Notes under the pieces: generated by a model
What the model saw: only the letters and a program-made list of their open reading frames with translations
Databases searched by the model: none
What the model was told of the DNA's origin: nothing
From: a bacterium
GTDB taxonomy: Bacteria > Patescibacteriota > Microgenomatia > Daviesbacterales > UBA10151
DNA length: 46,853 nt
Assembly (NCBI GenBank): GCA_021790255.1
Contig: JAJYIE010000006.1
Location: forward strand, 1 to 46,853
Reading direction: 5' to 3'
Shown here: piece after piece, positions 7,006 through 43,491 of the stretch
How the letters are laid out: every line of letters begins with the position of its first letter
Numbering within the stretch: position 1 is the stretch's first letter
Made by a program: the position numbers and the translations under genes

Positions 7006-7057
7006 CTTCGCTTTCTGCAAGTTGATATTCCGGGTTTAATACCATTACACTTTGCTT

Positions 7058-7855
7058 ATGGGAAAGTATTGGGCGTATTTTAAGTTATCTCTGCAGACAA
7101 TCCTTGAATACCGGGGAGATATGGTTATTTATACCCTCAATAACGGGGCAATGCCTTTGGTGGGTTTGTTAATTTGGTTGGCAGCAGCAAGCGGAGGAGC
7201 GAAACTGGCAATAGCTGCTCCGGATCTGATCGTTTATTTCCTGCTGGCTGCTTGGGTTAATATCGTCGTTTTTAGCTGGGGATCGTGGTACGTTTATGAA
7301 ATTATCGATAAAGGAGATTTTTATAAATATCTTATAAAACCATTCTCGCTGGCCTGGGGGTTTGCTGCTGAAAACGGTGCGCAGCAGGTATTAAAGACAG
7401 TGGTAATCTCGGCGGTAATTTTAATTATTGCAGTGGTACTGTCACGTTCTTACCCGCTTCATTTAAGGGTTACTCCGCTTTCGCTATTGCTTTTTTTGCC
7501 AAGCCTGGTGATGACAGGCCTGATCGTTTTTTATATTGAACTATGTTTAGGTTTAACTGCATTTTGGGTTTATGATATCGATTTTTTAACCAATACCTAT
7601 AATATGCTCAACCAGTTGTTGTCAGGAAGGTTGATCCCACTGGTTTTTTTACCCGCGGGTTTAGCCAGTGCCTCAACGTTTATGCCTTTCCGTTATACTC
7701 TTTCTTTTCCGATCGAAGTCCTGCTTAATAAAGTTGGCGGATATGAGGAGTTGCTTGGTTTTATGATCCAGATAATTTGGCTGGGTGCAACATTCGTTTT
7801 GTACAGACTGCTTTATCAGCAAGGAGCTAAAAATTACCAGGGGTTTGGCGGATGA
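7058..7855 (+). CDS. ABC-2 family permease (ABC2_membrane_6/DUF990 type), copy A1
   Basis: Six-TM pattern with EYR, GD.YKYLIKP, SGRLIPL and PFRY...FP motifs. Confidence 0.88.
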   Translation: MGKYWAYFKLSLQTILEYRGDMVIYTLNNGAMPLVGLLIWLAAASGGAKLAIAAPDLIVYFLLAAWVNIVVFSWGSWYVYEIIDKGDFYKYLIKPFSLAWGFAAENGAQQVLKTVVISAVILIIAVVLSRSYPLHLRVTPLSLLLFLPSLVMTGLIVFYIELCLGLTAFWVYDIDFLTNTYNMLNQLLSGRLIPLVFLPAGLASASTFMPFRYTLSFPIEVLLNKVGGYEELLGFMIQIIWLGATFVLYRLLYQQGAKNYQGFGG

Positions 7856-8637
7856 AATATTACCTTAGAATATTTTTGGCGTTGATAAATACTGCTTCCA
7901 AAAGGTATTTAGAATATAGATGGAATACTTTCGGAAATCTTGTCACCTCCACCCTCTCCCTCATTTTAGTTATTTTTTTCGTGGATATTATTTTCTCTCA
8001 AACTAATAATATTGCCGGATGGACAAAACCTGAAGTGTTATTTTTTGTCGGCACTTTTCGGGTTTTCAGTTCTCTGCTCTCGTTTTTGTATCTGCGCAGC
8101 ATTAATTTTATCCCTAAATATATTCAACGGGGAGATTTGGATATGTTTCTGGTTAAGCCGGTCAATGTTCAATTTTACGTAAGCCTCTGCTTTACCAGAG
8201 TATATGAAATTATTAATCTTTTGCCGGGAATAGTACTGATAGGTTACGCCTTGCAGAGTCTTGGTGGTGTTTCTTGGGAGGGATGGCTACTGCTTTTGGG
8301 AGGAGTTATTTGCGGACTACTAATTTTCTATGGACTGTATTTTATGTGTGCAACTCTGGCTTTTTGGTTTGTACAATTTAACTCTTTAACCAGTATTTAC
8401 TTTGTGGCTAATTCTTTCCTATGTTTCCCGACTGATGTATTCGGCAAAAATGGTTCGCTCGTTTTTACTTACCTGATTCCTCTGGGTTTTATTGTTACAG
8501 TACCGGTAAGAATCTTTTTGGCAAAAGATCCACCCTTATTTCTTATTTTGTCCGTCTTTTTCGCTGCGCTTTCTTTGTGGCTATCTGTAAAATTTTGGAA
8601 TTATGCCCTGAAACACTATACTTCGGCCAGTTCCTAG
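7852..8637 (+). CDS. ABC-2 family permease, copy B1
   Basis: IAGWT, GDLDMFLVKP and C-terminal YTSASS. Overlaps the upstream stop codon (ATGA). Confidence 0.88.
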   Translation: MKYYLRIFLALINTASKRYLEYRWNTFGNLVTSTLSLILVIFFVDIIFSQTNNIAGWTKPEVLFFVGTFRVFSSLLSFLYLRSINFIPKYIQRGDLDMFLVKPVNVQFYVSLCFTRVYEIINLLPGIVLIGYALQSLGGVSWEGWLLLLGGVICGLLIFYGLYFMCATLAFWFVQFNSLTSIYFVANSFLCFPTDVFGKNGSLVFTYLIPLGFIVTVPVRIFLAKDPPLFLILSVFFAALSLWLSVKFWNYALKHYTSASS

Positions 8638-8651
8638 TTTAAAATGAAGTT

Positions 8652-9638
8652 ATGGAAGATCCGGTAATTAAGGTTAAAGATTTAAAGAAATACTACCGCA
8701 TTCATCAAAAAGAACCCGGTCTGGCCGGCTCGGTTAAATCCCTCTTTTCCCGCAAATATTACAACGTTGAGGCGGTCAATGATATCTCCTTTGAAATCGG
8801 TGAAGGAGAGCTGGTTGGCTTTATCGGGCCAAATGGGGCAGGGAAGACTACGACCCTGAAGGTTTTATCCGGCCTGCTTTATCCAACCTCCGGTTATGTC
8901 CGGGTTTTAGGTTTTGAGCCGTTTAAAAGACAGCCGAAATTTCAAAAACAGTTTTCCCTGGTGATGGGCCAAAAAAACCAACTGTGGTGGGATTTGCCGG
9001 CTTGGGAAAGTTTTATTTTAAACAAGGAAATTTATGAAGTTCCCGATAACCAGTTTGAAACTATTGTCCATGAGTTGTCGGAGATGCTGGAGATCAAAGA
9101 CATTTTAAAGGTGCAGGTCAGGAAGTTATCCCTGGGCCAGCGGATGAAGGCAGAACTGGTAGCGGCTTTGTTGCATTCACCAAAGGTTTTATTTTTGGAC
9201 GAACCGACGATTGGCCTGGATGTAGTGGCACAAAAAAAGATGCGGGATTTTGTTAAGGAGTATAACCAGCAATATAAAGCTACGATTATTTTAACCTCTC
9301 ATTATATGGGAGATGTTAAGGAGCTTTGCAAAAGGGTGATCGTTATTGATAAAGGTATTATTTTGTATGATGGATTATTGGAGAAGATTGTCGAGAAATT
9401 TGCCGCTCATAAAGTGATTAAAGTTGATTTCGAAAAGCCAATTGATCCGGAGAAATTGAAAAATATCGGTGAGATCAAGGAAAACGAAGAGATGCATTAT
9501 TTGATTCATGTACCAAGGAAAGAAGCGCCCAAGCGGGCAGCCAAGTTATTAGACAACTTTCCGGTTGTGGATTTGACAATAGAAGAGCCACCCATCGAGG
9601 ATGTTATCCGGCAAGTTTTTAATGGGGGAAAAGTTTGA
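8652..9638 (+). CDS. ABC transporter ATP-binding protein
   Basis: GPNGAGKTT Walker A, LSLGQ signature, LFLDEPT Walker B, TSH loop. Confidence 0.96.
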   Translation: MEDPVIKVKDLKKYYRIHQKEPGLAGSVKSLFSRKYYNVEAVNDISFEIGEGELVGFIGPNGAGKTTTLKVLSGLLYPTSGYVRVLGFEPFKRQPKFQKQFSLVMGQKNQLWWDLPAWESFILNKEIYEVPDNQFETIVHELSEMLEIKDILKVQVRKLSLGQRMKAELVAALLHSPKVLFLDEPTIGLDVVAQKKMRDFVKEYNQQYKATIILTSHYMGDVKELCKRVIVIDKGIILYDGLLEKIVEKFAAHKVIKVDFEKPIDPEKLKNIGEIKENEEMHYLIHVPRKEAPKRAAKLLDNFPVVDLTIEEPPIEDVIRQVFNGGKV

Positions 9639-9678: not shown

Positions 9679-9972
9679 ATGAGTAAGCCAAAGGAAGAGA
9701 AAAAAATCGAAGTTCCCTTAAATGTTTTGGCAAAACTCTTAACTCCTTCGGAAATCCGGATGTTAAAAAACCGCTGGCATATTATTAACCTTTTAGATGA
9801 TGGTTTAACCATCCGCCAGGCAGCGGCCCAGGCGAAAGTAGGTACGGATACTGTTGTACGGGTAGCTCGGATGGCGGAGAAAAGTGAGGTTAGGAAAGAA
9901 GTTGATAAAGAACTAAACACCCATCGCAAAATAAGAACTAACACTCCCTGGATCTTCGGCAAGAACGAATAA
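9679..9972 (+). CDS. TrpR/YerC-YecD family helix-turn-helix regulator
   Basis: LLTPSEIRMLKNRW..I..LL..G.T.RQ.A....VGTDTVVRVAR pattern of the Trp-repressor fold. ATG 9679 follows a TTGACT...TAATAT promoter. Confidence 0.85.
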   Translation: MSKPKEEKKIEVPLNVLAKLLTPSEIRMLKNRWHIINLLDDGLTIRQAAAQAKVGTDTVVRVARMAEKSEVRKEVDKELNTHRKIRTNTPWIFGKNE

Positions 9973-10772
9973 TGCACAAATACATTAAGGTTTTTAATGT
10001 TTCCTGGCAAAATGAATTTACCTACCGCCTGAATTTTATTCTCTGGCGGATTCGTAACCTGCTGCGTTTTTTGATGACTTATTTTTTATGGTCAGGTATT
10101 TTTATCGGCCAGAGGCAAATTTTCGGTTATTCACAAGAACAGATTATAACTTATGTTTTTTTGGTTCTGATTGTTCAGACATTTGTTACATCTGCTCCAT
10201 CCCAAGACAATATCGGCGGAGAAATTGCCAACGGAGACTTAAGTAATTATTTGCTAAAACCGGTTAGCTATATCAAATACTGGTTTACTCGGGATTTAGC
10301 CAGCAAACTGTTTAACCTGTTTTTTGCCGTTTTTGAAATAACACTGCTGTGGCTGATTTTCCGTCCGGCTGTATTTTTTCCGGCTCAGGTTTTGAGTATT
10401 GCAGGGTTTTTTCTTAGCGTAACCGCGGCAGTTTTTATCAATTATTTTTTAAGCCTTGTAGCCAGGTTTGTAACTTTTTGGACGCCGGAAAACACCTGGG
10501 GAATAGCCTTCGTGGTTTTGGTGCTGATCGAGATACTCGGAGGCGGTATATTCCCTCTGGATGTGCTGCCGAAACCTGCCTTTTTTGCCCTCCAGCTGAC
10601 CCCTTTCCCCTATCTGGTATATTTTCCCATCGCAATTTTTGTGGGAAAAGTAACAGGTTTGTATTTAATTCAGGTACTATTGCAATCGTACGTATGGGTT
10701 TTTATGCTGTACTGGGTGATGATGAAAATCTGGCAGGTGGGTTTGAAAGTATATGGGTCGGAGGGAAGGTAG
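9972..10772 (+). CDS. ABC-2 family permease, copy A2
   Basis: TYR, GDLSNYLLKP, GGGIFPLD and PFPYLVYFP motifs. Paralogue of 7058..7855. Confidence 0.9.
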   Translation: MHKYIKVFNVSWQNEFTYRLNFILWRIRNLLRFLMTYFLWSGIFIGQRQIFGYSQEQIITYVFLVLIVQTFVTSAPSQDNIGGEIANGDLSNYLLKPVSYIKYWFTRDLASKLFNLFFAVFEITLLWLIFRPAVFFPAQVLSIAGFFLSVTAAVFINYFLSLVARFVTFWTPENTWGIAFVVLVLIEILGGGIFPLDVLPKPAFFALQLTPFPYLVYFPIAIFVGKVTGLYLIQVLLQSYVWVFMLYWVMMKIWQVGLKVYGSEGR

Positions 10773-10775
10773 CTT

Positions 10776-11555
10776 ATGAAAGAATTTAAAATCTGGCTAA
10801 GATATACGTCCAACTCATTTCAGCAAACTTTAAGTAACCGGACACTGGTGGCAATTTTTATAACTGGTAAAACTTTACGGATTGCCCTGTTTTTATTGTT
10901 TCTAATATTTTTATTTCAGGGGACCAGGGGAATCGGTGGTTATAATCGAAATCAAATTATTTTTTTCTATCTTTCATTTAATTTTATTGATACCCTGGCG
11001 CAATTGGTGTTTCGTGAAGTTTATAGATTCCGTCCGCTGGTAATTACCGGCGAGCTGGATTTTGTTTTATTAAAACCGCTCAATCCTTTAATCAGAGTGC
11101 TTCTGGGGGGCAGTGATGTTTTAGATCTGATTATGCTGGTTTTAATAGCGGCAGCTACTTTCTGGTTTGGGATAACGCATCTTAATACCAACTTCCCCGG
11201 CTGGATTCTCTATTTCCTGCTTATTGCCAATGGTCTGATGCTGGCAACAGCTTTCCATATTTTTGTTCTGGGGGTAGGTGTAATGACGACTACTGTTGAC
11301 AATCTGGTGATGATTTACCGTGATATGACTTCAATGCTGCGGGTCCCGGTTGATTTATATACTGAACCAATAAGAGCAATACTGACCTTTATTATTCCGC
11401 TGGGAATTATGATAACTTTTCCGGCGAAAGCTTTAATGGGGCTCTTGTCTTGGCAGATGATTACTATTTCTGTGGGCCTGGCAGCAGTTTTAATGTTTTT
11501 GTCTTTGAAGTTTTGGAGTTACGCTTTAAAACAATATTCTTCCGCCAGCAGCTAA
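10776..11555 (+). CDS. ABC-2 family permease, copy B2
   Basis: IGGY, GELDFVLLKP and C-terminal YSSASS. Paralogue of 7852..8637. Confidence 0.9.
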   Translation: MKEFKIWLRYTSNSFQQTLSNRTLVAIFITGKTLRIALFLLFLIFLFQGTRGIGGYNRNQIIFFYLSFNFIDTLAQLVFREVYRFRPLVITGELDFVLLKPLNPLIRVLLGGSDVLDLIMLVLIAAATFWFGITHLNTNFPGWILYFLLIANGLMLATAFHIFVLGVGVMTTTVDNLVMIYRDMTSMLRVPVDLYTEPIRAILTFIIPLGIMITFPAKALMGLLSWQMITISVGLAAVLMFLSLKFWSYALKQYSSASS

Positions 11556-11561
11556 AATATT

Positions 11562-12530
11562 ATGAAGAAAGTATTGGTTATTCTTGGTCCTACCGCCACC
11601 GGTAAGACTGATTTGGGGCTTTTTTTGGCGAAAAAATTTAACGGTGAACTAGTTTCCTGTGATTCGCGGCAAGTTTATAGAGGCTTGGACATTGGCACAG
11701 GTAAGGAAGCAAGTAAAAAGTTAGAAGTAAAAAAACAAAAATGTTTTTGGGAAATTGACGGAATAAAGACTTGGATGTATGACGTAGCAGATCCGCAGAC
11801 GAGGTATGCTGTTAAAGATTATGTTGGTGCTGCCTGTCGGATTATTGATGAAATAACACAAAAAGGTAAATTGCCGATTGTTGTGGGGGGGACAGGGTTA
11901 TATTTGCGGGGGCTTTTAGACGGTTTTTCGAATTTAGCAATTCCGGTGGATGAAAAATTGAGAAGGAAACTGCAGGGTCTCTCCTTACATGAGTTGCAGA
12001 AAAAACTGCAGGAGCTTTCCCCTTCCCGCTGGGAAAAAATGAACGATTCTGACAGATCTAACCCCCGTCGCCTGCTCCGCTCTATCGAATTAGTAATTAT
12101 GTATGGATTCATTGATCAACAGGTAAAATACAGAGGGTTAAACCAGCGGTTTAAAATTTTAAAAATCGGCCTGACTGTTCCCCGCGAGGTTTTAAATAGC
12201 AGAATTGATCTACGCCTGAAAGCTCGTTTGGACCAAGGATTAGTCGAGGAGGCAAAAAAGTTGCAGGCAGAGGGGCTAAGTTTGGAAAGAATGAAAGAAT
12301 TGGGGTTGGAATACAGCGGGTTGGCCCGACTTTTGGGAAAAGAAATTTCGCGGGAGGAGATGATTAAAATTCTCAGTTTAAAAATTCACCAATATGCCAA
12401 GCGTCAGGTGACCTGGTTTAGAAAAGAGCAGGACGTCAACTGGTTCGATATTACCAAGGACAACTTTGCCTTACAGGTAGAAAAATGTGTTCGGGAATGG
12501 TACTATTCAGTTGATGAGCAGACGGATTGA
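11562..12530 (+). CDS. miaA: tRNA dimethylallyltransferase
   Basis: [30 protein letters not shown] and YAKRQVTWF motifs. Confidence 0.98.
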
Positions 12531-14286: not shown

Positions 14287-15090
14287 TCATTTTATACCTT
14301 TTTTAAGGGCTAAAGTCAGCAGGAAAATGACCAGCGCTAGAAGGACGATCGCTCCTCCGGCCGGCAGGTCAAGGTAATAAGAGGTAAAAATTCCTACAAT
14401 AACCGAGAATAAGGAGATTGCTTCTGAAATAATTATTGTTTGTTTGAAACTAGCTTTGTACTGCAGAGCCGTAACTACCGGTATTACAATAAGGGCAGCT
14501 ATCAGTAGAACTCCGACAATCGGGATTGACAGCGCTACAGTCAGGGCTGTGGCAATAATCAGAATAATATTTACCAGGTGGGTATGAATACCACTGACAC
14601 TGGCGATTTCCTCATCAAAAGAGACGGCAACTAACTCTTTATAAAACGCTAAAAGCGTAATTATGACAACCACACCGACTGCCCCGATGATGTAAATGTC
14701 CGACTGCCTGACTGTGATAATACTGCCGAAAAGATAACTAAAGAGATCGGCATTAAAGCCGTGTGCTAGGCTGATCAGTATAACCGCAAGCGCCAGACTT
14801 CCGGATAGAAAAATAGCCAAGGCGGATTCGCCATAAACTTTGCGTGAGATCCTTAGCCGTTCAATAGCTACAGAAGAAGCTACTGCGGCAAATAGAGCAG
14901 TTATCAGCGGATTAGTCTGTAGTAGCAAGCCGATGGCCACACCGGCCAGGGAAACATGAGACAGGGTATCGGCAATCAAGGAATAACGCCGCAAAACCAA
15001 AAAAACTCCGATAACCGGAGCAGTCAGGGAGATAATAACTCCCGCTTCCAGCCCTCTGACAATGAATGTATACTGGAATAGATCAAGCAT
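14287..15090 (-). CDS. znuB: Zn/Mn ABC transporter permease
   Basis: ADTLSHVSLAG, YLFGSI and SFDEE motifs. Confidence 0.93.
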   Translation of the reverse strand: MLDLFQYTFIVRGLEAGVIISLTAPVIGVFLVLRRYSLIADTLSHVSLAGVAIGLLLQTNPLITALFAAVASSVAIERLRISRKVYGESALAIFLSGSLALAVILISLAHGFNADLFSYLFGSIITVRQSDIYIIGAVGVVVIITLLAFYKELVAVSFDEEIASVSGIHTHLVNIILIIATALTVALSIPIVGVLLIAALIVIPVVTALQYKASFKQTIIISEAISLFSVIVGIFTSYYLDLPAGGAIVLLALVIFLLTLALKKGIK

Positions 15091-15092
15091 AG

Positions 15093-15878
15093 TCAGTGAG
15101 ATTCAGCATGTTGAGCAACGATCTTTACCCCTTTCCCGTAAAGATCAGATACATCATTCCTTCTGATGAAATCTTTCGGTTTGCTGTCATAAATTAAGGT
15201 CTTATTAACACAGGCAATTTCCGTTACCTCTGTTGCCACGACACTTAAATCGTGCGAAACCAGCACTAAGGTTATACCTAGTTCTTTGTTTAATCGCTGC
15301 AGCAACTTATAGAATTGTTCTTGTGCTTCCTGGTCGACTCCGGCTGTCGGCTCATCCAGAAAGATCACCTCCGGTTCAGCTGCAAGGGCTCTTGCGATGA
15401 ATACCCGCTGTTGTTGCCCTCCGGACATATCTCCAATTAAACGGTTTCGAAAGTTCATCAGATTTACCTGTTTGAGGGCTTCCTCTACCTTTTCGTTATC
15501 AATTTTTTTGGGCCAGCGGAATAAGCCGATTTTAGCACATCTGCCCATAGCCACGACCTCTTTCACGGTGGCCGGAAAATTAATGTCAAAACTAGTTGCC
15601 TTTTGGGAGACATAGCCGATCATTGGCCATTCTTTAAAACTATCAATCTCCTGCCCAAAAATTTTAATGGTTCCACGAGATGGTTTTACAAGGCCAAGAA
15701 TAAGTTTTAAAAGAGTTGTTTTCCCGCCCCCATTTGGGCCGATTATCCCCAGATAATCACCTCTGTGGATATTGAGATTAATGTTTGTTAGAACCTCGTC
15801 CGTGTTGTTGCCGGCGTACGAAAACGAGACGCCTGTTATCTCAATAATATTTTTAGTGTGGTCAATTGTTACTGACAT
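15093..15878 (-). CDS. znuC: Zn/Mn ABC transporter ATPase
   Basis: GPNGGGKTT, MSGGQQQR, LDEPT and VSHD motifs. Confidence 0.93.
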   Translation of the reverse strand: MSVTIDHTKNIIEITGVSFSYAGNNTDEVLTNINLNIHRGDYLGIIGPNGGGKTTLLKLILGLVKPSRGTIKIFGQEIDSFKEWPMIGYVSQKATSFDINFPATVKEVVAMGRCAKIGLFRWPKKIDNEKVEEALKQVNLMNFRNRLIGDMSGGQQQRVFIARALAAEPEVIFLDEPTAGVDQEAQEQFYKLLQRLNKELGITLVLVSHDLSVVATEVTEIACVNKTLIYDSKPKDFIRRNDVSDLYGKGVKIVAQHAESH

Positions 15879-16765
15879 TGTAAGGCTGTACGAAGATTAA
15901 CCAGATTCTGTTGCATCACAGTAAAGTAGTCTTTGCCCTTTTCTATATCATCATTGCTCAGTCCTTCCAAAGGATCAAGGACTAAAGTTTTTGCCCCAAT
16001 CTCGTTCGCCAGAGTTTCTGACAATTTGGGGCTGACCAGACTTTCAAAAAAGATGTATTTTACATTGTGGGTTTTGGCAAATTGGACAATTTGGGCAAGT
16101 TTGGCGGGCGACGGCTCAGCATCTGGTGAAAGTCCTGTGATGGCTACCTGGTTCAACCCATATCGTTTGGTAAGATGCCCGAATGCCGCGTGAGAAGTGA
16201 TGATGTCTTTTTCCCGACAATTGGCCAAACCTTGCCGGTATGATTGATCCATCTGGGCCAACCTAGCTGTTAAGTTTTGAGCATTAGACCGATAGTATAT
16301 GCTGTTTCCCGGATCAGCCTTTTCGAAACCCTTTGCTATTCTGCTAACTTCTATCTCGGCAAGTACGGGGTCTACCCAAACGTGTGGGTCCTGATCATCA
16401 GAAAATAACCCTTCTCCGGCTGTGACTATAGCAACTTGTTTTCCGCTTAACTGGTCCTTAATTTTATTTCCCCACCCTTCGATTCCTCCGTTTATGATGA
16501 GCAGTTTGCCGGTTTCTATGCGGGCCATATCGGCGATTGTTGGTTCAAAATCATGCGGTTCTGATCCGGCCGGAGTAATATTTTGCACCTGAGCCCTGTC
16601 CCCTCCGATCTGCGTGGCAAAATAGTACAAAGGATAAAAGGATGCGCTAACTTGCAGCTTGTTATTTCCGGGAGCGATAACTGCCCGTGAAGAATGTAGG
16701 CTGACCAGGATAAGAAAAACTACCACAGTTAATACTCCTGCGGCAGCCGGCAACCTCTTCTTCAT
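15869..16765 (-). CDS. znuA: Zn/Mn ABC substrate-binding protein (ZnuA/AdcA family)
   Basis: EPHDFEP, DPHVW, SHAAF and LDPLEG metal-binding motifs, with an N-terminal membrane anchor. Confidence 0.92.
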   Translation of the reverse strand: MKKRLPAAAGVLTVVVFLILVSLHSSRAVIAPGNNKLQVSASFYPLYYFATQIGGDRAQVQNITPAGSEPHDFEPTIADMARIETGKLLIINGGIEGWGNKIKDQLSGKQVAIVTAGEGLFSDDQDPHVWVDPVLAEIEVSRIAKGFEKADPGNSIYYRSNAQNLTARLAQMDQSYRQGLANCREKDIITSHAAFGHLTKRYGLNQVAITGLSPDAEPSPAKLAQIVQFAKTHNVKYIFFESLVSPKLSETLANEIGAKTLVLDPLEGLSNDDIEKGKDYFTVMQQNLVNLRTALQCQ

Positions 16766-38891: not shown

Positions 38892-40322
38892 ATGAAAACA
38901 CCGCAAACACCCTTTCTGAAAAAGGCAACTGAGTTTGCCAATGATTCTCTTGTCGGTAAAAAACGGAATTCCGGAGAAAAGGTGGCTGACCACTGCCTGC
39001 GGGTTGCAGAAATTCTGGAAGATTTTAAGGTGACGGATCCGGAAGTGTTGGCCATGGCAATTTTACATCACAGCCTGCACGAAGGTGCGGCGAGTATAGA
39101 TGACATCCGCTGGGAGTTTGGTGAAGATATTGCTTCGATGATGGAGGCTTTTGAGAAGCTGCGCATAATTAAACCGCGAAAAGAGATAGGGGAAAAATTT
39201 ACGGAAAATCTGCGGTGGATGTTTTTGGTGTTGGCCAAGGATTTGCGGGTGGTGTTGGTAAAGCTGGCAGATATTTTAGACAACCTGACTACCCTGCAAT
39301 ATGTTAATGAGAAAAAAAGAGTTGAAGTATCCCGAAAAACCCTGGAAATTTTTGCTCCTCTGGCTGAGCGGTTAGGTATGGGGGAAATGAAAGGCACAAT
39401 GCAGGATCTGGCTTTTATGAACCTGTACCCGGGTGAGTACGAGTGGGTAAAAAAATATGCTCACAACCAGATTGATAAACTGACAAAGGCGATGCCCAAA
39501 GTTAAAGCGAAACTCAGCCAGGCTTTGGATGAGGCAGGAATCGAGGCAGAAATCCAAAGCAGGATCAAACATTATTATTCCCTTTATACTAAATTGCAGC
39601 GCCCTGAGGTAAACCGGGATATTAACAAAATTTATGACCTAATGGCGATGCGGGTGATTGTTAAGGAAAAAGAGGAGTGCTATCAGGTTTTAAGTATTGT
39701 AAACCAGCTCTTCAGGCCTCTGCCGGGTCATGTTTCAGATTTTATTGCCCATCCGAAGCCTAACGGCTATCAGTCTATCCATACTAAAGTTTTCGGACCG
39801 GCTAATCTGCCTTTTGAAATTCAAATCCGCACCCGGAAAATGCATGAGGCAGCAGAGTATGGAGTAGCTGCCCACTGGAACTACGCTGAGCAAAAAGAGA
39901 AGGGATTTTCTGATGAGGTAATCAGCCGGGGTTTTGCAGCCGGCGGAGAAAAACTTGAGTGGGTGAAAAGATTGGGGGAATGGCAGATGGAAGTCACGGA
40001 TAACAGGGAATTTTTAAAAAGCATTAAAACTGATTTTTTCGGCCAGCGGATTTTTTGCTTTACCCCCAAAGGAGATGTGAAAGATTTACCTGCCGGCGCA
40101 ACCCCGATCGATTTCGCCTATCATGTGCACACGAATTTGGGCAACCTAGTTACCGGAGCTAAGGTTAACGGTAAAGTAGTATCTCTTAACACTACGCTGC
40201 GAAACGGTGATGTAGTGGAACTGTTTTTATCCAAAGATCTCAGCAAAAAGCCCAGCCGCGACTGGCTGGAATTTGTCAAAACTTCCCTTGCCCGCCGCAA
40301 GATCAAGAAATTTTATACGTGA
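38892..40322 (+). CDS. relA: RelA/SpoT homologue (degenerate HD + synthetase + TGS, no ACT domain)
   Basis: VKLAD, FAPLAERLG, RIKH..S...K, DLMAMRV, PKPNGYQSIHT, EIQIRT, AEYGVAAHW and TGS (ATPIDFAY.VHT). Confidence 0.92.
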   Translation: MKTPQTPFLKKATEFANDSLVGKKRNSGEKVADHCLRVAEILEDFKVTDPEVLAMAILHHSLHEGAASIDDIRWEFGEDIASMMEAFEKLRIIKPRKEIGEKFTENLRWMFLVLAKDLRVVLVKLADILDNLTTLQYVNEKKRVEVSRKTLEIFAPLAERLGMGEMKGTMQDLAFMNLYPGEYEWVKKYAHNQIDKLTKAMPKVKAKLSQALDEAGIEAEIQSRIKHYYSLYTKLQRPEVNRDINKIYDLMAMRVIVKEKEECYQVLSIVNQLFRPLPGHVSDFIAHPKPNGYQSIHTKVFGPANLPFEIQIRTRKMHEAAEYGVAAHWNYAEQKEKGFSDEVISRGFAAGGEKLEWVKRLGEWQMEVTDNREFLKSIKTDFFGQRIFCFTPKGDVKDLPAGATPIDFAYHVHTNLGNLVTGAKVNGKVVSLNTTLRNGDVVELFLSKDLSKKPSRDWLEFVKTSLARRKIKKFYT

Positions 40323-40323
40323 G

Positions 40324-40638
40324 TTAATATCCCCGGCTGAGGTGCCTGATTTCACTGCGGTTTTCCCGGTAAGGTTTAGTTAAAGTTTTTAATAGATCCA
40401 ACAAGGCGCTTTTCTGAGATATATAATCAGGGTCCTGTTCTGAGATATCCCTCTTTCTTTCTCCAGGGTATTGTTCATTTAGGGCAGCCAGTGACTGCCG
40501 ACAGACAGTGATATCAGCCCTGATGGCACTATTAATCGCCCCAAGTTTGCTAATCTCTATTTTAGTGTTTCTGGTAATAATTTTCGCTTCAACGCTGATG
40601 ATAAACACCTCCTTTCGTATAGGTTTAACTTTTACCAT
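40324..40638 (-). CDS. Small hypothetical helical protein (start uncertain)
   Basis: 104-aa ORF converging on relA. An internal AAAGGAGGTG SD (40606-40615) suggests a slightly later start. Confidence 0.55.
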   Translation of the reverse strand: MVKVKPIRKEVFIISVEAKIITRNTKIEISKLGAINSAIRADITVCRQSLAALNEQYPGERKRDISEQDPDYISQKSALLDLLKTLTKPYRENRSEIRHLSRGY

Positions 40639-40899
40639 CCGAAAGCATTTAGCCGTGAATCTTCCTGCTGGCCGATATGAACCAAAGCTACCCTTTCCAG
40701 CAGGGGTCTTTTGACATGGTACTCATAACTGGCTGGTTCTGTCAGGACAGCGTGCTCATTACATTCATTCGGAAACCAGTTTCTAACCAAAGCCTGCAAT
40801 AACAAGACTTCCCCCGCACTAAGCTGCCTGGTATCTGCCGGCTCATGTTTTTATGTTTCAACAGTCAGGTTTATCGCCTCATTTCAGTAAATTTAACTC

Positions 40900-40925
40900 A
40901 TCCCGGCTGGACAACCAGCCGGGAT
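40900..40925. repeat. Perfect 11-bp hairpin
   Basis: ATCCCGGCTGG-acaa-CCAGCCGGGAT, with no U-tract. Confidence 0.7.
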
Positions 40926-40944
40926 ATGCTTTTGGATTGAGAAA

Positions 40945-41214
40945 TTACCCAGCCCGGTAGATAGCTACGCCAGGCTGTTTTGTTTTTAGTACAAAATGAT
41001 GGTTAGAGCTTTCTCCTCTGGCTATGCGGACATCCCGCTGCTCCGGTACGCTAACACTTATAGCGTCTCCTTCGGTAGTTGGCGTATGAGAAGGTCTTTC
41101 ATCTACCCCAAACCTGTTACTTTTCCATCTTAATTCAGCTGAAAGAGGATCAAACATTCTGGCCATTTCAGCATCATTCGTCCGACCTTCTTGTTCTGTG
41201 TGTCTTTCATTCAT
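40945..41214 (-). CDS. Small hypothetical protein (89 aa), first gene after the Ile/Leu/Val attenuator
   Basis: AAAGGGGGTGA SD then ATG at 41214 (MNERHTEQEG...). Confidence 0.7.
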   Translation of the reverse strand: MNERHTEQEGRTNDAEMARMFDPLSAELRWKSNRFGVDERPSHTPTTEGDAISVSVPEQRDVRIARGESSNHHFVLKTKQPGVAIYRAG

Positions 41215-41243
41215 TGTTATCACCCCCTTTCATTTTTGTGTAC

Positions 41244-41269
41244 AAAAAACCTCCCTTGTGGGGAGGTTT
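41244..41269 (-). terminator. Attenuator terminator (3:4) of the minus-strand leader
   Basis: On the minus strand: AAACCTCCC-cacaa-GGGAGG-TTTTTT. Confidence 0.8.
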
Positions 41270-41294
41270 CCTCTTCTTTTAGGTTTTTAATTTT

Positions 41295-41390
41295 TTACCT
41301 AAAAGACCTCCCCGATTTGACTCCAATAAGAAGGAGTCCTCCGAGGAGGCTGATAATAATAACCAAAACCGGCGAAACTGATAAATTCAT
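41295..41390 (-). CDS. Ile/Leu/Val-rich leader peptide, 31 aa (MNLSVSPVLVIIISLLGGLLLIGVKSGRSFR)
   Basis: ATG 9 nt after a TAAAAT -10 box. 15 of 31 codons are I/L/V. Overlaps mutually exclusive hairpins ahead of a terminator. Confidence 0.75.
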   Translation of the reverse strand: MNLSVSPVLVIIISLLGGLLLIGVKSGRSFR

Positions 41391-41399
41391 GTTTTTAAG

Positions 41400-41442
41400 A
41401 TTTTAATCCACTATTGCCAGGCTTGTCAAGTTGTAGTAAGAT
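41400..41442. promoter_or_regulatory. Overlapping divergent sigma70 promoters
   Basis: Minus strand: TTGACA (41429-41424), 18 nt, TAAAAT (41405-41400). Plus strand: TTGCCA (41414-41419), 17 nt, TAAGAT (41437-41442). Confidence 0.72.
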
Positions 41443-41453
41443 TTAAAAAACCA

Positions 41454-41525
41454 ATGATGATTTTCCGGACTAGTTTAACAAGCTTTTACTATTACTTTAC
41501 CTCCATAAAACGGGAGGCCTTTTGA
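41454..41525 (+). CDS. Phe/Tyr leader peptide, 23 aa (MMIFRTSLTSFYYYFTSIKREAF)
   Basis: ATG 11 nt after the -10 box. Tandem TTT TAC TAT TAC TTT codons lie directly before the alternative-pairing segments. Confidence 0.75.
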   Translation: MMIFRTSLTSFYYYFTSIKREAF

Positions 41526-41560
41526 CGTAGGTTAAAAATACAGTCAAAAGAAAGTAAACA

Positions 41561-41587
41561 GCCTCCCAGAAATGGGAGGTATTTTTT
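41561..41587 (+). terminator. Attenuator terminator (3:4) of the plus-strand leader
   Basis: GCCTCCCA-gaaa-TGGGAGGT-ATTTTTT (GNRA loop plus U-tract). Confidence 0.82.
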
Positions 41588-41614
41588 GGAAATTTTTTAA
41601 GGAGGTGATGACAA

Positions 41615-41797
41615 GTGGGTGCACAAAGAGTGAAGGAGATGGAACCGGCGATTCCCTTAGATCGGGTGAGTTTAAAGAACAGCAAGCTTAAGCAACCCGG
41701 TGAAGATATTAAAGATGATCTGATCTGGAAATCTTTATTGGTTGAAACAACCAGGCCGAAAATGATCAGAGCCAGGCGCGGATTGCGGGCAAGATGA
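41615..41797 (+). CDS. Small hypothetical protein (60 aa, Arg-rich tail), first gene after the Phe/Tyr attenuator
   Basis: Perfect AAGGAGGTGA SD (41599-41608) before a GTG start. Confidence 0.68.
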   Translation: MGAQRVKEMEPAIPLDRVSLKNSKLKQPGEDIKDDLIWKSLLVETTRPKMIRARRGLRAR

Positions 41798-41850
41798 TGA
41801 TCAAGAAGCTAATTGTTTAAGCATACCAAAGAAAGAAGGAGGTGAATTTT

Positions 41851-42111
41851 ATGAGCGAAACAGAACCAGTAACTTTGGAGTTAATTTCCATGCCTGCTGT
41901 AGCTAAAGCGGCGCTTAAAGAGGTCAGGCGAAGCCGGGGAAGAAAGCGCATTTTTCCATGTCAGGAAGGAGGTGGCTGCTTGGAACTTAACATTAATAAC
42001 TTTTGCGCAGCTAATAAGTGTGCGTATTCGGCGCTAGATAAGGCATTGGTATGTCATCTGCGGGGAGGAGTTGTCAGAATGGTGGCCTTGCCGCGGCAGG
42101 CGGTTAGGTAG
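41851..42111 (+). CDS. Small basic Cys-rich hypothetical protein (86 aa)
   Basis: AAGGAGGTGA SD (41836-41845) before ATG 41851. C-x5-C-x8-C-x4-C-x10-CH spacing. Confidence 0.68.
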   Translation: MSETEPVTLELISMPAVAKAALKEVRRSRGRKRIFPCQEGGGCLELNINNFCAANKCAYSALDKALVCHLRGGVVRMVALPRQAVR

Positions 42112-42156
42112 GTTTAGTATTGTCAAGGATATATGAAGTTGCTATGATCAACGCGT

Positions 42157-43491
42157 ATGGAAAGAACGCTGATCGTAGACTGTAACGATAAAATTGACCA
42201 GGCAGTTAAAATCTGCGGTTGGGTGCAGGTACGCCGCGACCACGGAAAGATTGTTTTTCTGGATATTTCAGACCGCTCCGGTGTTCTTCAGGTGGTGGCA
42301 GCCGGGGAGCAGGCAGGGGATTTAAATGCCCAAGATGTGGTTTGTATCGAAGGTAAAGTTGAGAAACGCCCGGAAAATCTGGTTAACCCCAATCTGTCCA
42401 CTGGCACCATTGAACTTCAGGCCGGCAAAATTGAGGTGCTGTCAAAGGCTGCAGAACTTCCCTTTGACATGGGGGCCAAGGAGTTGAACCTGCAACTACC
42501 GACCCTTCTGGATTATCGTTCTTTAACCCTTCGCTACCCTAAAGTTAGGGAAATTTTTCGGGTGCAATCAGTATTGATGGAAGCTTTCCGTCAGGCTGCG
42601 ATCAACTTGGGCTGCGTCGAGATTTTTATTCCGACCATTGTTGCTGCAGCGACCGAAGGCGGTGCAGAAGTTTTTCCGGTTGATTACTACGGTCACAAAG
42701 TCTATATGTCCCAAAGCCCCCAGCTGTATAAACAGATGCTCGTCCCGGTTTTTGAAAGAGTTTTTACTATTGCCCTCGCCTACAGGGCGGAGCCATCAGT
42801 TACAACCCGGCATTTGTCCGAGTCTACCCAGATGGATTGCGAACTGGGCTTTGTGACATTTACCGAGCTAATGGATTACCTGGAAGAAGTTGCTACCCGA
42901 ATGCTTCAGGCTGTCGAGGAAAAATGTCCTGAGTCCTTGAAAGTTTTCGGAGTGGAGCCGGTTGCGTTCGGAAAAATACCCCGGCTGACATTGCGGGAAG
43001 CTCAGGAGATAATTTTTAAAGAAACCGGGCGGGATAACCGGGCCGAAAAAGACTTAGCTCCTCAGGATGAAATTGATATTTGTAAATGGGCTCTCAAAAA
43101 CCATAACAGTGATTTAGTGACAATTACCCATTTCCCAACTACTAAACGGGCTTTTTATACCATGCCCGACCCGGACAACCCGGAATACAGCCTAAGTTAT
43201 GATCTTTTATTCAGGGGAACTGAAATGTTAAGCGGCAGTCAAAGAATTAGTGATTATGAGCAACTGGTTCAGGTAATTAAAGATCGGGGAATGGACCCGA
43301 AAAACTTTGAGATGTATCTTTTGGCCTTTAAATATGGCATGCCGCCGGAGGGGGGATTTTCCTTTGGTCTCGAGAGGCTAACCATGAATGTTTTGAAGTT
43401 GTCAAACATCCGCGAAGCTTCACTTTTCCCCCGGGATATGGAGAGAGTTGACATCAGGCTTTCCACCTTGGGGAAAGACAAAGGACAGTAA
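42157..43491 (+). CDS. aspS: Aspartate--tRNA ligase, short archaeal-type (probably non-discriminating Asp/Asn)
   Basis: OB anticodon domain, TEGGAEVF, QSPQLYKQ, YRAEPS.TTRHL.E and GMPPEGGFSFGLERL...FPRD. No bacterial GAD insertion. Confidence 0.93.
   Translation: MERTLIVDCNDKIDQAVKICGWVQVRRDHGKIVFLDISDRSGVLQVVAAGEQAGDLNAQDVVCIEGKVEKRPENLVNPNLSTGTIELQAGKIEVLSKAAELPFDMGAKELNLQLPTLLDYRSLTLRYPKVREIFRVQSVLMEAFRQAAINLGCVEIFIPTIVAAATEGGAEVFPVDYYGHKVYMSQSPQLYKQMLVPVFERVFTIALAYRAEPSVTTRHLSESTQMDCELGFVTFTELMDYLEEVATRMLQAVEEKCPESLKVFGVEPVAFGKIPRLTLREAQEIIFKETGRDNRAEKDLAPQDEIDICKWALKNHNSDLVTITHFPTTKRAFYTMPDPDNPEYSLSYDLLFRGTEMLSGSQRISDYEQLVQVIKDRGMDPKNFEMYLLAFKYGMPPEGGFSFGLERLTMNVLKLSNIREASLFPRDMERVDIRLSTLGKDKGQ

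Follow-up and report, generated by a model that had tools for sequence, protein, structure and literature searches.

Probable divergent leader-peptide attenuators, most likely sensing aromatic amino acids and leucine, precede small orphan ORFs in a tiny-genome bacterium

Leader-peptide attenuators ordinarily govern genes for making or charging the amino acid that they sense, so what would two of them be doing, back to back, in front of ORFs that resemble nothing known? The question arose from a 46,853-nt stretch of bacterial DNA (assembly GCA_021790255.1, contig JAJYIE010000006.1, positions 1 to 46,853; hereafter the window). A first-pass annotation, made from the sequence alone, described two overlapping, divergent sigma70 promoters at 41200–41620, each starting a nearly leaderless short ORF on a shared RNA scaffold with different control codons (FYYYF versus VLVIII/LL/LLL). 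It proposed a re-programmable family of amino acid starvation sensors of the Yanofsky type that control tiny orphan proteins instead of biosynthetic operons. Every sequence feature it listed is present, and the observation is confirmed. Its interpretation is supported, with amendments given below. The features are as follows.

41400..41429 (−): promoter of the minus unit, TTGACA-18-TAAAAT (−35 at 41429..41424, −10 at 41405..41400), 11 of 12 matches; the −10 ends 9 nt before the leader ATG.
41414..41442 (+): promoter of the plus unit, TTGCCA-17-TAAGAT, 9 of 12 matches, overlapping the minus promoter; the −10 ends 11 nt before the leader ATG.
41454..41525 (+): plus leader ORF, 23 aa, MMIFRTSLTSFYYYFTSIKREAF, aromatic class, with control codons F11-Y-Y-Y-F15 at 41484–41498; its tail SFYYYFTSIKREAF resembles the family's aromatic leaders (..F/Y/W run..FTFRKEGG..).
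41499..41504 (+): plus region 0, ACCUCC (codons T16-S17), which pairs with region 1 when no ribosome covers it; the minimum-free-energy fold contains CCUCC:GGAGG, with 5 of 5 core pairs.
41512..41518 (+): plus region 1, GGGAGGC, at the last codons of the leader; 5′ strand of the antiterminator.
41519..41550 (+): plus stop-codon hairpin, CUUUUGAC...GUCAAAAG, with the stop TGA at 41523–41525; its arms differ from those of the minus unit in a compensatory way (GAC/GUC against AGGU/ACCU).
41561..41587 (+): plus terminator, region 2 GCCUCCCA, loop GAAA, region 3 UGGGAGGU, then a U-tract; about −15 kcal/mol for the hairpin.
41615..41797 (+): cargo ORF 1 of the plus unit, 60 aa, GTG start, Shine-Dalgarno (SD) site AAGGAGGTGAT at 41599–41609; 1 aromatic residue in 60.
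41851..42111 (+): cargo ORF 2 of the plus unit, 86 aa, SD GAAGGAGGTGA; 3 aromatic residues in 86.
41295..41390 (−): minus leader ORF, 31 aa, MNLSVSPVLVIIISLLGGLLLIGVKSGRSFR, Leu-rich class, with V8-L-V-I-I-I13 at 41369..41352, L15-L16 at 41348..41343 and L19-L21 at 41336..41328; 7 Leu, 4 Ile and 4 Val in all.
41341..41350 (−): minus region 0, GCCUCCUCGG (codons S14-L15-L16-G17), which pairs with region 1 in a 10-bp stem in the minimum-free-energy fold.
41306..41315 (−): minus region 1, UCGGGGAGGU; 5′ strand of the antiterminator.
41276..41305 (−): minus stop-codon hairpin, CUUUUAGGU...ACCUAAAAG, with the stop TAA at 41297..41295.
41244..41272 (−): minus terminator, region 2 ACCUCCCC, loop, region 3 GGGAGGU, then U6.
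40945..41214 (−): cargo ORF of the minus unit, 89 aa, SD AAGGGGGTGA at 41229..41220; 3 Leu in 89.
40899..40926 (both directions): two-way hairpin terminator with a 12-bp stem that ends the minus cargo transcript.

We first asked whether this arrangement stands out from its surroundings. The string GGGAGGYCTTTT has exact matches only at 41512–41523 (+) and 41301–41312 (−) in the 46.8 kb, and with up to one mismatch there are 5 matches against 1.02 expected. The pattern CCTCCC-N3-7-GGGAGGT gave 3 matches, two of them the two strands of one site, against 0.02 expected. Both units fold more stably than shuffled sequences (z = −3.98 for plus and −4.98 for minus), and 0 of 200 shuffles fold as well. 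Two qualifications apply to the first-pass description. It placed the units immediately downstream of a RelA-like gene, which is loose: the RelA_SpoT/HD/TGS ORF ends at 40322, about 900 nt away, with two small minus-strand ORFs in between. Its assignment of the lineage to CPR is plausible but not shown. The genome is 0.94 Mb at 91.6% completeness, and the best named matches to the RelA-like protein are Patescibacteria MAGs at only 43–47% identity; a search for related loci with this protein returned only such distant relatives and gave no synteny data. Rfam finds no family at gathering score anywhere in the window. Its Phe_leader model (RF01859) gives weak matches to both units (31.8 bits for minus and 24.8 bits for plus, against a gathering score of 55 bits) and to nothing else in the region at that level, and neither a T-box nor a riboswitch appears among the 11 sub-threshold hits.

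The annotation had named in advance the result that would support it, namely further copies with other control-codon runs and covarying stems, so we searched relatives for the scaffold. The pattern GGAGG-N22-52-CCTCC-N4-10-GGAGGTWTTTT occurs in 84 of 96 genomes of the family, in 1–7 copies each, and the reversed-pattern control found 0 in all 96. It also occurs in 50 of 151 genomes sampled from the class, the control again being 0 (one genome of this sample, G160, is unpublished and enters only this tally). Leaders are rich in Phe/Tyr/Trp, Ile, Ile/Val/Leu, Thr, Met, Tyr or Cys. Near-leaderless starts are also shared: the −10 ends 6–13 nt before the ATG in 58 of 72 units with a promoter score of at least 9 of 12.

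Among 89 unique units from 48 loci, the composition of the leader matches the gene behind it in the following cases. All 11 of 11 DAHP synthase or prephenate dehydratase genes follow leaders with at least 5 Phe/Tyr/Trp; Pfam confirmed 6 of these, and the other 5 were assigned by BLAST cluster. Ile-run leaders precede HMGL-like/LeuA_dimer genes (citramalate/isopropylmalate-synthase-like) in 4 of 4 cases, and Ile/Val-rich leaders precede acetolactate-synthase-like genes in 5 of 5. RidA follows an Ile run. Aspartate kinase follows Thr runs in 2 of 2 cases, KKTTKTT in this family and VTTTTTST in another family. MetRS follows GIMMIR, and a SAM hydroxide adenosyltransferase domain follows KMMMLEM. 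A Leu-run reading of the leader before the LeuA/CimA-like gene in one locus (L009) was rejected, because it was in the wrong frame; with the promoter-anchored start this is an Ile-run leader. One unit before a PheS gene in another family has no Phe run and was not counted as support. We chose the class thresholds for leaders after seeing the data.

The competing RNA structures were examined in the same units. The region 1 to region 2 segment folds with the 1:2 core pairing in 87 of 89 units (median −22.2 kcal/mol, against a terminator median of −14.3). The full segment folds as terminator in 55 units and as antiterminator in 33, so the two states are close in energy. On 65 aligned units the terminator helix is 95.7% paired, and the 1:2 helix is 87.5% paired against 84.1% in shuffles (0 of 500 reach it), with 42 cells changed on both sides against 16.9 (0 of 500). 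The GGGAGG:CCUCCC pairing covaries at two flanking positions: pair 13:63 is UA 21, UG 17 and CG 14, and pair 14:62 is CG 20 and UA 20. These changes cannot come from the terminator, whose partners there are always U. R-scape was not run on the full alignment, and the units were not mapped with a covariance model in every genome of the class. A covariance model scores the minus unit at 67.8 bits, although this unit was in the training set. Region 1 is sequestered by an upstream ORF segment in both window units and in 74 of 80 units overall, against 259 of 400 shuffled controls (92% against 65%), which is only a moderate excess. The stop codon lies 9–18 nt after the start of region 1 in 77 of 80 units, and 10 and 14 nt after it in the window.

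We conclude, with a probability of roughly 0.8, that both units are ribosome-mediated transcription attenuators of the Yanofsky type. In this view, each transcript starts 0–5 nt before a short ORF, and four segments compete for pairing: region 0, a CCUCC-like stretch inside the ORF just 3′ of the control codons; region 1, GGGAGG at the last codons; region 2, CCUCCC; and region 3, GGGAGGU followed by a U-tract. Region 2 paired with region 3 is an intrinsic terminator, whereas region 1 paired with region 2 is the antiterminator, which closes a long stem around the stop-codon hairpin. Region 0 paired with region 1 would keep region 1 out of play when nothing is stalled. A ribosome that runs to the stop codon would cover region 1 and the terminator would form; one stalled at the control codons would cover region 0 and free region 1, so that the antiterminator forms and RNA polymerase reads into the SD-led ORFs downstream. 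The plus unit would sense charged tRNA-Phe and tRNA-Tyr, and the minus unit mainly tRNA-Leu, perhaps also tRNA-Val. The sequence elements, the alternative pairings, their covariation, the conservation across the family and the match between leader and gene in relatives were demonstrated by the analysis, but ribosome stalling, termination and read-through in the cell and the response to starvation are inferred from them. No expression or starvation data exist: no RNA run is listed as containing the locus, and reads were not mapped because the two RNA runs of the same study hold next to none of the sampled words. The first-pass interpretation requires three amendments. The family does control biosynthetic and tRNA-synthetase genes in relatives, and orphan cargo holds for this genome and for about half of the sampled units (49 of 89), not for the family as a whole. 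The minus leader belongs to a Leu-rich class, possibly Leu plus Val, and is not a plain Ile/Val sensor. The sensing of host-derived amino acids, which the annotation had suggested, remains an inference; the facts behind it are that this genome lacks the four enzyme families named below and that 9 of 10 relatives whose aromatic unit precedes a small ORF lack both aromatic enzymes.

The cargo in this genome departs from the usual expectation that the downstream genes concern the same amino acid, a feature that is customary for such attenuators rather than part of the mechanism. The genome has only these two units and lacks the DAHP synthase, prephenate dehydratase, HMGL-like and TPP-enzyme families. 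None of the three cargo ORFs has a Pfam match, and phmmer against all 2,540 ORFs of the retrieved loci gave nothing below E 1; the 60-aa ORF was searched only in these two ways. The 89-aa ORF matched 0 of 95 family genomes and only itself in a set of 5.8 billion proteins (near lengths only), and its resemblance by eye to some small ORFs of relatives was not supported by phmmer and was dropped. The 86-aa ORF gave marginal matches in 2 of 95 family genomes, and these contain stops. The ESM Atlas yielded no usable hit, and its structure models have low confidence (pLDDT 0.36 and 0.43). Coding scores are ambiguous (0.165, 0.066 and 0.115 for the 60-, 86- and 89-aa ORFs, against 0.25 ± 0.09 for real genes and 0.03 ± 0.10 for spurious ORFs), and the function of the ORFs is unknown. 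Closer strains of this species were not recovered to measure selection on them. Across the family, small cargo ORFs (<150 aa) are poor in the amino acid that their leader is taken to sense. Those behind Leu-class units contain 5.3% Leu (genome background 10.7%; other classes median 8.3%; one-sided Mann-Whitney p = 0.0036), those behind aromatic units 3.7% Phe+Tyr+Trp (background 9.3%; p = 8.8e-5), and those behind Ile units 4.5% Ile (p = 0.017). The class thresholds were chosen after seeing the data and the genomes are related to each other, so these p-values are overstated; the relation of leader class to pathway presence and to depletion of the cognate amino acid in the cargo was not tested with phylogenetic correction. 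In 26 of 89 units the 3′ arm of the terminator also serves as the SD of the next gene.

Of the alternatives, the one that survives best, although unlikely, is that the family is functional but these two units are relics left after loss of the aromatic and branched-chain genes, followed by chance frames, so that nothing useful is regulated. The absence of the four enzyme families and the orphan, ambiguous and poorly modeled cargo ORFs are consistent with this. However, both units are fully intact in promoters and stems, and all three cargo ORFs have strong, correctly spaced SD sites. No remnant of an enzyme was found: tblastn of the relatives' downstream proteins gave nothing better than E 0.04 between 40300 and 42200, and one unrelated methyltransferase hit in the whole genome. 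The cargo ORFs are poor in the cognate amino acid, as are 38 small cargo ORFs in relatives, and where such ORFs are conserved between genera dN/dS is 0.35–0.76 in 6 of the 8 pairs examined (synonymous sites were saturated in the other 2). Furthermore, 9 of 10 relatives whose aromatic unit precedes a small ORF also lack both aromatic enzymes; the arrangement recurs, so it is not a one-off decay state.

A slightly less likely possibility is that the units, especially the Leu-rich one, sense general translation speed or ribosome-targeting stress, as antibiotic-responsive leader-peptide attenuators do. Any slowing of the ribosome in the leader would free region 1, Leu is the commonest residue (10.7% of the proteome) and so a broad proxy, and no Leu-pathway gene was seen behind this class in the 25 sampled units. 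Against this, the cargo of that class is depleted specifically in Leu and not in Ile or aromatic residues, and the sister classes are clearly amino acid specific. It is more doubtful still that the minus leader is a small membrane peptide, such as a type I toxin, with its own terminator, and not a sensor. It does look like a transmembrane helix, with a run of about 20 hydrophobic residues and a basic tail, and Leu-class peptides share a loose N-terminal pattern and a length of 30–36 aa. However, the identical scaffold carries non-hydrophobic leaders (aromatic, Ile-run, Thr, Met) in front of cognate enzymes, the conserved C-terminal residues coincide with region 1 and the hairpin arm (so the constraint is at the RNA level), the ORFs behind this class are Leu-poor, and classical multivalent Ile/Leu/Val leaders are equally hydrophobic. 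There is no antisense partner, since the two transcripts start about 55 nt apart, diverge and do not overlap, and their similarity is in the same sense, not complementary. A chance arrangement of a two-way promoter, two ordinary terminators and meaningless ORFs, although short ORFs and GGAGG-like words are common and Rfam is silent at gathering score, is contradicted by the conservation with a zero control, the cognate pairing, the covariation and the folding z-scores.

A bolder hypothesis is compatible with these data, and we stress that it is tentative and somewhat less likely than not. In tiny-genome bacteria that have lost the pathways, attenuators may have been kept and re-used as stand-alone sensors of externally supplied, possibly host-derived, amino acids. 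Their output would be one to three fast-evolving small proteins, poor in the limiting amino acid so that they can still be made during that shortage, which would act as the lineage's starvation or host-interaction effectors. The locus next to the RelA/SpoT gene would then be a second, amino acid-specific arm of the starvation response. More generally, one conserved scaffold used across a whole class with at least six control-codon sets gives a sequence-readable map of which amino acids each of these uncultured organisms monitors. The units that survive without the matching pathway point to sensing that is decoupled from biosynthesis, and offer a handle on how such symbionts or scavengers perceive nutrient supply. 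The scaffold also flags dozens of unannotated small proteins, and a few larger proteins with no Pfam match behind Tyr- or aromatic-run leaders, as likely parts of amino acid physiology. It is compact (about 130–190 nt including its promoter) and its codons appear swappable, which makes it attractive as an engineered sensor.

The mechanism itself is classical; what is new is the lineage, the conserved scaffold, the leaderless leaders and the orphan cargo. In the literature searched, no paper reporting leader-peptide attenuation for CPR/Patescibacteria-like bacteria was found; in one paper retrieved, 'leader peptide' refers to bacteriocins. The closest systems are the E. coli-type pheL-pheA attenuator (RF01859) and the trp, leu, ilv and thr leaders. 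These share a short leader ORF with a run of cognate codons, three alternative helices (equivalent to pause/1:2, antiterminator/2:3 and terminator/3:4) and a decision set by the position of the ribosome, and in relatives of the present genome the targets are the same kinds of genes (DAHP synthase, prephenate dehydratase, acetolactate synthase and aspartate kinase). The present units differ in their sub-threshold match to RF01859, in a leader that has no SD site and starts 0–5 nt from the transcript's 5′ end, in the conserved GGGAGG/CCUCCC/GGGAGG triplet and the stop-codon hairpin between regions 1 and 2 that are shared by all amino acid classes, in the terminator arms that double as SD sites, and, in this genome, in their cargo. 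In Deinococcus deserti, a member of a different phylum, 14 putative attenuation leader peptides are translated from transcripts whose 5′ end is the start codon or 1 nt before it (de Groot et al., 2014, PMC4007540). The targets there are ordinary enzymes, not orphan ORFs, and the passages on these peptides describe no shared RNA scaffold; the peptide sequences were not compared. The Leu/phe leader motif of Lactococcus uses one conserved attenuator structure with either Leu or Phe codon runs, depending on the operon, which is the same idea of one scaffold with swappable control codons. It covers two amino acids in one genus, whereas here at least six codon classes are spread across a whole class of bacteria, and the window has no Rfam hit to it. 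Finally, predicted attenuators of Actinobacteria (Seliverstov et al., 2005, PMC1262725) and the Leu-rich attenuator peptide of the Staphylococcus aureus ilv-leu operon (PMC5794164) provide leader peptides with terminators upstream of ilvB, trp, leuS and trpS. They belong to different lineages with different sequences, and their targets are always biosynthesis or tRNA-charging genes, but they show that the mechanism is not confined to Proteobacteria.

Two divergent, overlapping sigma-70-like promoters lie between a RelA_SpoT/HD/TGS gene and a class II Asp/Asn-type tRNA synthetase gene. Each is followed, 9 or 11 nt after its -10 hexamer, by an ATG, so the mRNAs are leaderless or nearly so. The features of the interval are as follows.

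38892-40322: RelA_SpoT/HD/TGS gene
40638..40324, minus strand: 104-aa ORF, with a coding score typical of real genes (0.21)
40640-40900: about 260 nt with no convincing ORF
40899-40926: perfect 12-bp GC-rich hairpin, called as a terminator on both strands, which ends the minus cargo transcript
41390-41295, minus strand: leader ORF encoding MNLSVSPVLVIIISLLGGLLLIGVKSGRSFR
41429..41400, minus strand: promoter, TTGACA-18-TAAAAT
41414-41442, plus strand: promoter, TTGCCA-17-TAAGAT
41454-41525, plus strand: leader ORF encoding MMIFRTSLTSFYYYFTSIKREAF
42120-42157: promoter-like site of the tRNA synthetase gene, TTGTCA-17-TATGAT with an extended TG
42157-43491: class II Asp/Asn-type tRNA synthetase gene

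The -10 of the promoter-like site before the tRNA synthetase gene ends 8 nt before its ATG; leaderless mRNAs may be common in this genome and not only at the attenuators. Both leader ORFs end in GGGAGGYCUUUU, for which exact matches occur only at these two places in 46.8 kb. The stop codon sits in a hairpin, followed by a purine-rich linker and then by CCUCCC-loop-GGGAGGU plus a U-tract. This last motif has 3 matches against 0.02 expected, and both copies are called as terminators. The two RNAs fold far better than shuffled sequences (z = -3.98 and -4.98; 0 of 200 shuffles fold as well). Strong Shine-Dalgarno (SD) sites and small ORFs follow, of 60 aa and 86 aa on the plus strand and 89 aa on the minus strand. 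The first-pass annotation had described paired, nearly leaderless ORFs on one shared RNA architecture, and that observation is confirmed. Elsewhere in the window (7052-9638, 9972-12530 and 14287-16765), three sets of three adjacent ORFs have nearly the same lengths (267/261/328, 266/259/322 and 267/261/298 aa; the third set is on the minus strand) and look like triplicated gene cassettes.

BLAST of the region against 40 relatives showed that the stretch from the end of the ORF through the hairpin to the terminator (window 41244-41312) is 70-89% identical in most genomes of the same family, and several copies often lie at one locus. A pattern for the three-part motif finds 1-7 copies in 84 of 96 family genomes (70 of 77 high-quality ones), whereas the reversed pattern finds none in any genome. 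In a sample of 151 genomes of the class, 50 have the pattern, again with a zero control; one of these 151 genomes is unpublished and enters only this tally. A covariance-model search for further copies, which the first-pass annotation had asked for as a check on its reading, was run with a model built from 65 units. In the window's own 0.94-Mb genome it finds only the two known units, which were part of the training set, and nothing else at E <= 1. The interval between the RelA/SpoT-like gene and the Asp/Asn-type tRNA synthetase gene is a recurrent home for these units in several genera (the window and the relatives' loci L004-L007 and L009), with a variable cargo of DAHP synthase, acetolactate synthase, a LeuA/CimA-like gene, or small ORFs. 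In the Leu-class units of many genera, a purine-rich linker close to GAAAGGAA is conserved between the hairpin and region 2, the CCUCCC strand (window 41275..41267). It is not needed for any of the three helices, and we have no explanation for it.

Together with the window, 47 loci fetched from relatives give 48 loci and 89 unique units, and the leader of each unit was called from the best promoter. In 58 of the 72 units with a promoter score of at least 9 of 12, the -10 ends 6-13 nt before the ATG; near-leaderless leaders are therefore a property of the family. The leader composition tracks the downstream gene. All 11 DAHP synthase or prephenate dehydratase genes follow leaders with at least 5 Phe/Tyr/Trp; six of these genes were confirmed by Pfam and the other five are assigned by BLAST cluster. 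All 4 HMGL-like/LeuA_dimer genes follow Ile-run leaders such as ..IIEIIIT.., which fits a citramalate-synthase role, although this is our inference. All 5 acetolactate-synthase-like genes follow Ile/Val-rich leaders. RidA follows an Ile run, an amino-acid kinase follows KKTTKTT, and a SAM hydroxide adenosyltransferase domain follows KMMMLEM. In other families of the class, VTTTTTST precedes an amino-acid kinase, aromatic leaders precede DAHP synthase twice, an Asp/Glu racemase, and an AstE/AspA-type enzyme, and GIMMIR precedes methionyl-tRNA synthetase. One unit is an exception to the cognate-run rule: in locus L137 (3740-4060, minus strand), from another family of the class, a unit with the full scaffold precedes phenylalanyl-tRNA synthetase alpha (PheS), but its 17-aa leader has a single Phe, no Phe run, and stops before region 1. 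Within the family, DAHP synthase is present in 30 of 96 genomes and prephenate dehydratase in 35 of 96, and at least 12 of the 31 DAHP synthase genes have a pattern match ending within 150 nt upstream.

Proteins of 323, 380 and 584 aa with no Pfam match at E <= 0.001 (relatives' loci L091, 11347-12315 and 10038-11177, and L092, 1218-2969) lie directly behind a Tyr-run leader (KYYYYNNF), an aromatic leader and a Leu-class leader. The 380-aa protein had only one far sub-threshold match (DnaG_DnaB_bind, E 0.016, 16 bits against a 29.1-bit cut-off). They are candidates for unrecognized amino-acid metabolism or uptake functions. A small protein family starting MAEY(H/R)LGRSEY.FDPTA.EAVA is conserved in three genera (L092, 83 aa; L096, 3726-4124; L113, 93 aa), directly behind Ile-class or Ile-rich attenuator units, although in L092 no leader could be called. 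Its similarity comes from the BLAST cluster, and Pfam was not run on these ORFs.

Region 1 (GGGAGG, the last codons of the leader) can pair with region 2 (CCUCCC), and region 2 can pair with region 3 (GGGAGGU plus Us). The region 1 to region 2 segment folds with the former pairing in 87 of 89 units (median -22.2 kcal/mol), and the terminator hairpin alone has a median of -14.3. The full segment folds as terminator in 55 units and as antiterminator in 33, which is what a two-state switch should look like. Covarying stems had been singled out in advance as evidence that would support the attenuator reading, and the 1:2 antiterminator helix covaries. On the 65-unit alignment the 1:2 helix is 87.5% paired, whereas shuffles give 84.1% (0 of 500 reach the observed value) and sliding the partner gives 40-67%. 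The helix has 42 cells changed on both sides, against 16.9 in shuffles (0 of 500). The two positions flanking the core switch between U:A and C:G (pair 13:63 is UA 21, UG 17, CG 14; pair 14:62 is CG 20, UA 20). In the terminator the same region 2 bases face invariant U, so this covariation belongs to the antiterminator.

An upstream CCUCC-like segment inside the ORF (region 0) sequesters region 1 in 74 of 80 units, against 259 of 400 shuffled leaders, and does so in both window units. In the plus unit, region 0 (41499-41504) is the two codons right after F-Y-Y-Y-F; in the minus unit, region 0 (41350..41341) is made of Leu codons 15-16 and their neighbours. The stop codon lies 9-18 nt after the start of region 1 in 77 of 80 units, a position from which a terminating ribosome would cover region 1. 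In 26 of 89 units (e.g., L006 2192-2217 and L101 1020-1045, both loci of relatives), the terminator's 3' arm GGGAGG lies 7-8 nt before the start codon of the next gene, where it doubles as that gene's SD site. The terminator hairpin would then also hide this site, giving transcriptional and translational control in one element. The double use of the arm as an SD site may explain why the GGGAGG/CCUCCC words are so conserved, but the explanation is our inference. The window's units have separate SD sites instead.

The window's own genome (91.6% complete) has no DAHP synthase, prephenate dehydratase, HMGL-like or TPP-enzyme family member, and no remnant of such genes lies in 40300-42200. The cargo ORFs have no Pfam match and no relatives, their coding scores are ambiguous, and their Atlas structure models have low confidence. 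They fit a family-wide pattern, however. In 49 of 89 units the first downstream ORF is shorter than 150 aa, and there are often one to three in tandem. These small ORFs are poor in the amino acid that their leader is rich in. Leu is 5.3% behind Leu-class leaders, against a proteome background of 10.7% and a median of 8.3% in the other classes (p = 0.0036). Phe+Tyr+Trp is 3.7% behind aromatic leaders, against a background of 9.3% (p = 8.8e-5), and Ile is 4.5% behind Ile leaders (p = 0.017). The tests are one-sided Mann-Whitney tests, and because the class thresholds were set after seeing the data and the genomes are related, these p-values are generous. The window follows the pattern, with 1 aromatic residue in 60, 3 in 86, and 3 Leu in 89.

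Where small cargo ORFs are conserved between genera, a crude dN/dS could be computed for 6 of the 8 pairs examined and is 0.35-0.76; in the other 2 pairs synonymous sites were saturated. Of the 10 relatives whose aromatic unit precedes a small ORF, 9 lack both DAHP synthase and prephenate dehydratase. We therefore favour real, fast-evolving small proteins, expressed on cognate shortage and of unknown function, over decayed relics.

The first-pass annotation had read the two units as Yanofsky-type attenuators, and that interpretation is supported, with amendments. We put a probability of about 0.8 on these being functional ribosome-mediated attenuators. The scaffold, its conservation, the covariation of the antiterminator and the match between leader and gene in relatives were observed in the sequences, whereas ribosome stalling, termination and read-through in the cell, and expression of the small proteins on cognate shortage, are inferred. 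The idea that the units act as sensors of external amino-acid supply driving starvation-proof small proteins is plausible, but somewhat less likely than not, and untested.

The mechanism is classical: it is the 1:2 / 2:3 / 3:4 logic of the trp, phe and ilv attenuators, with an extra stop-codon hairpin between the antiterminator strands. Leaderless leader peptides were proposed for Deinococcus deserti (PMC4007540), and attenuators are also predicted in Actinobacteria (PMC1262725). No paper describing attenuators in CPR/Patescibacteria was found in a limited search of the literature. In one paper that uses "leader peptide", the term refers to bacteriocin processing. What is new is the lineage, the single conserved scaffold re-used with at least six codon sets, the SD/anti-SD nature of the helices, and the orphan, cognate-poor cargo in genomes that lack the pathways.
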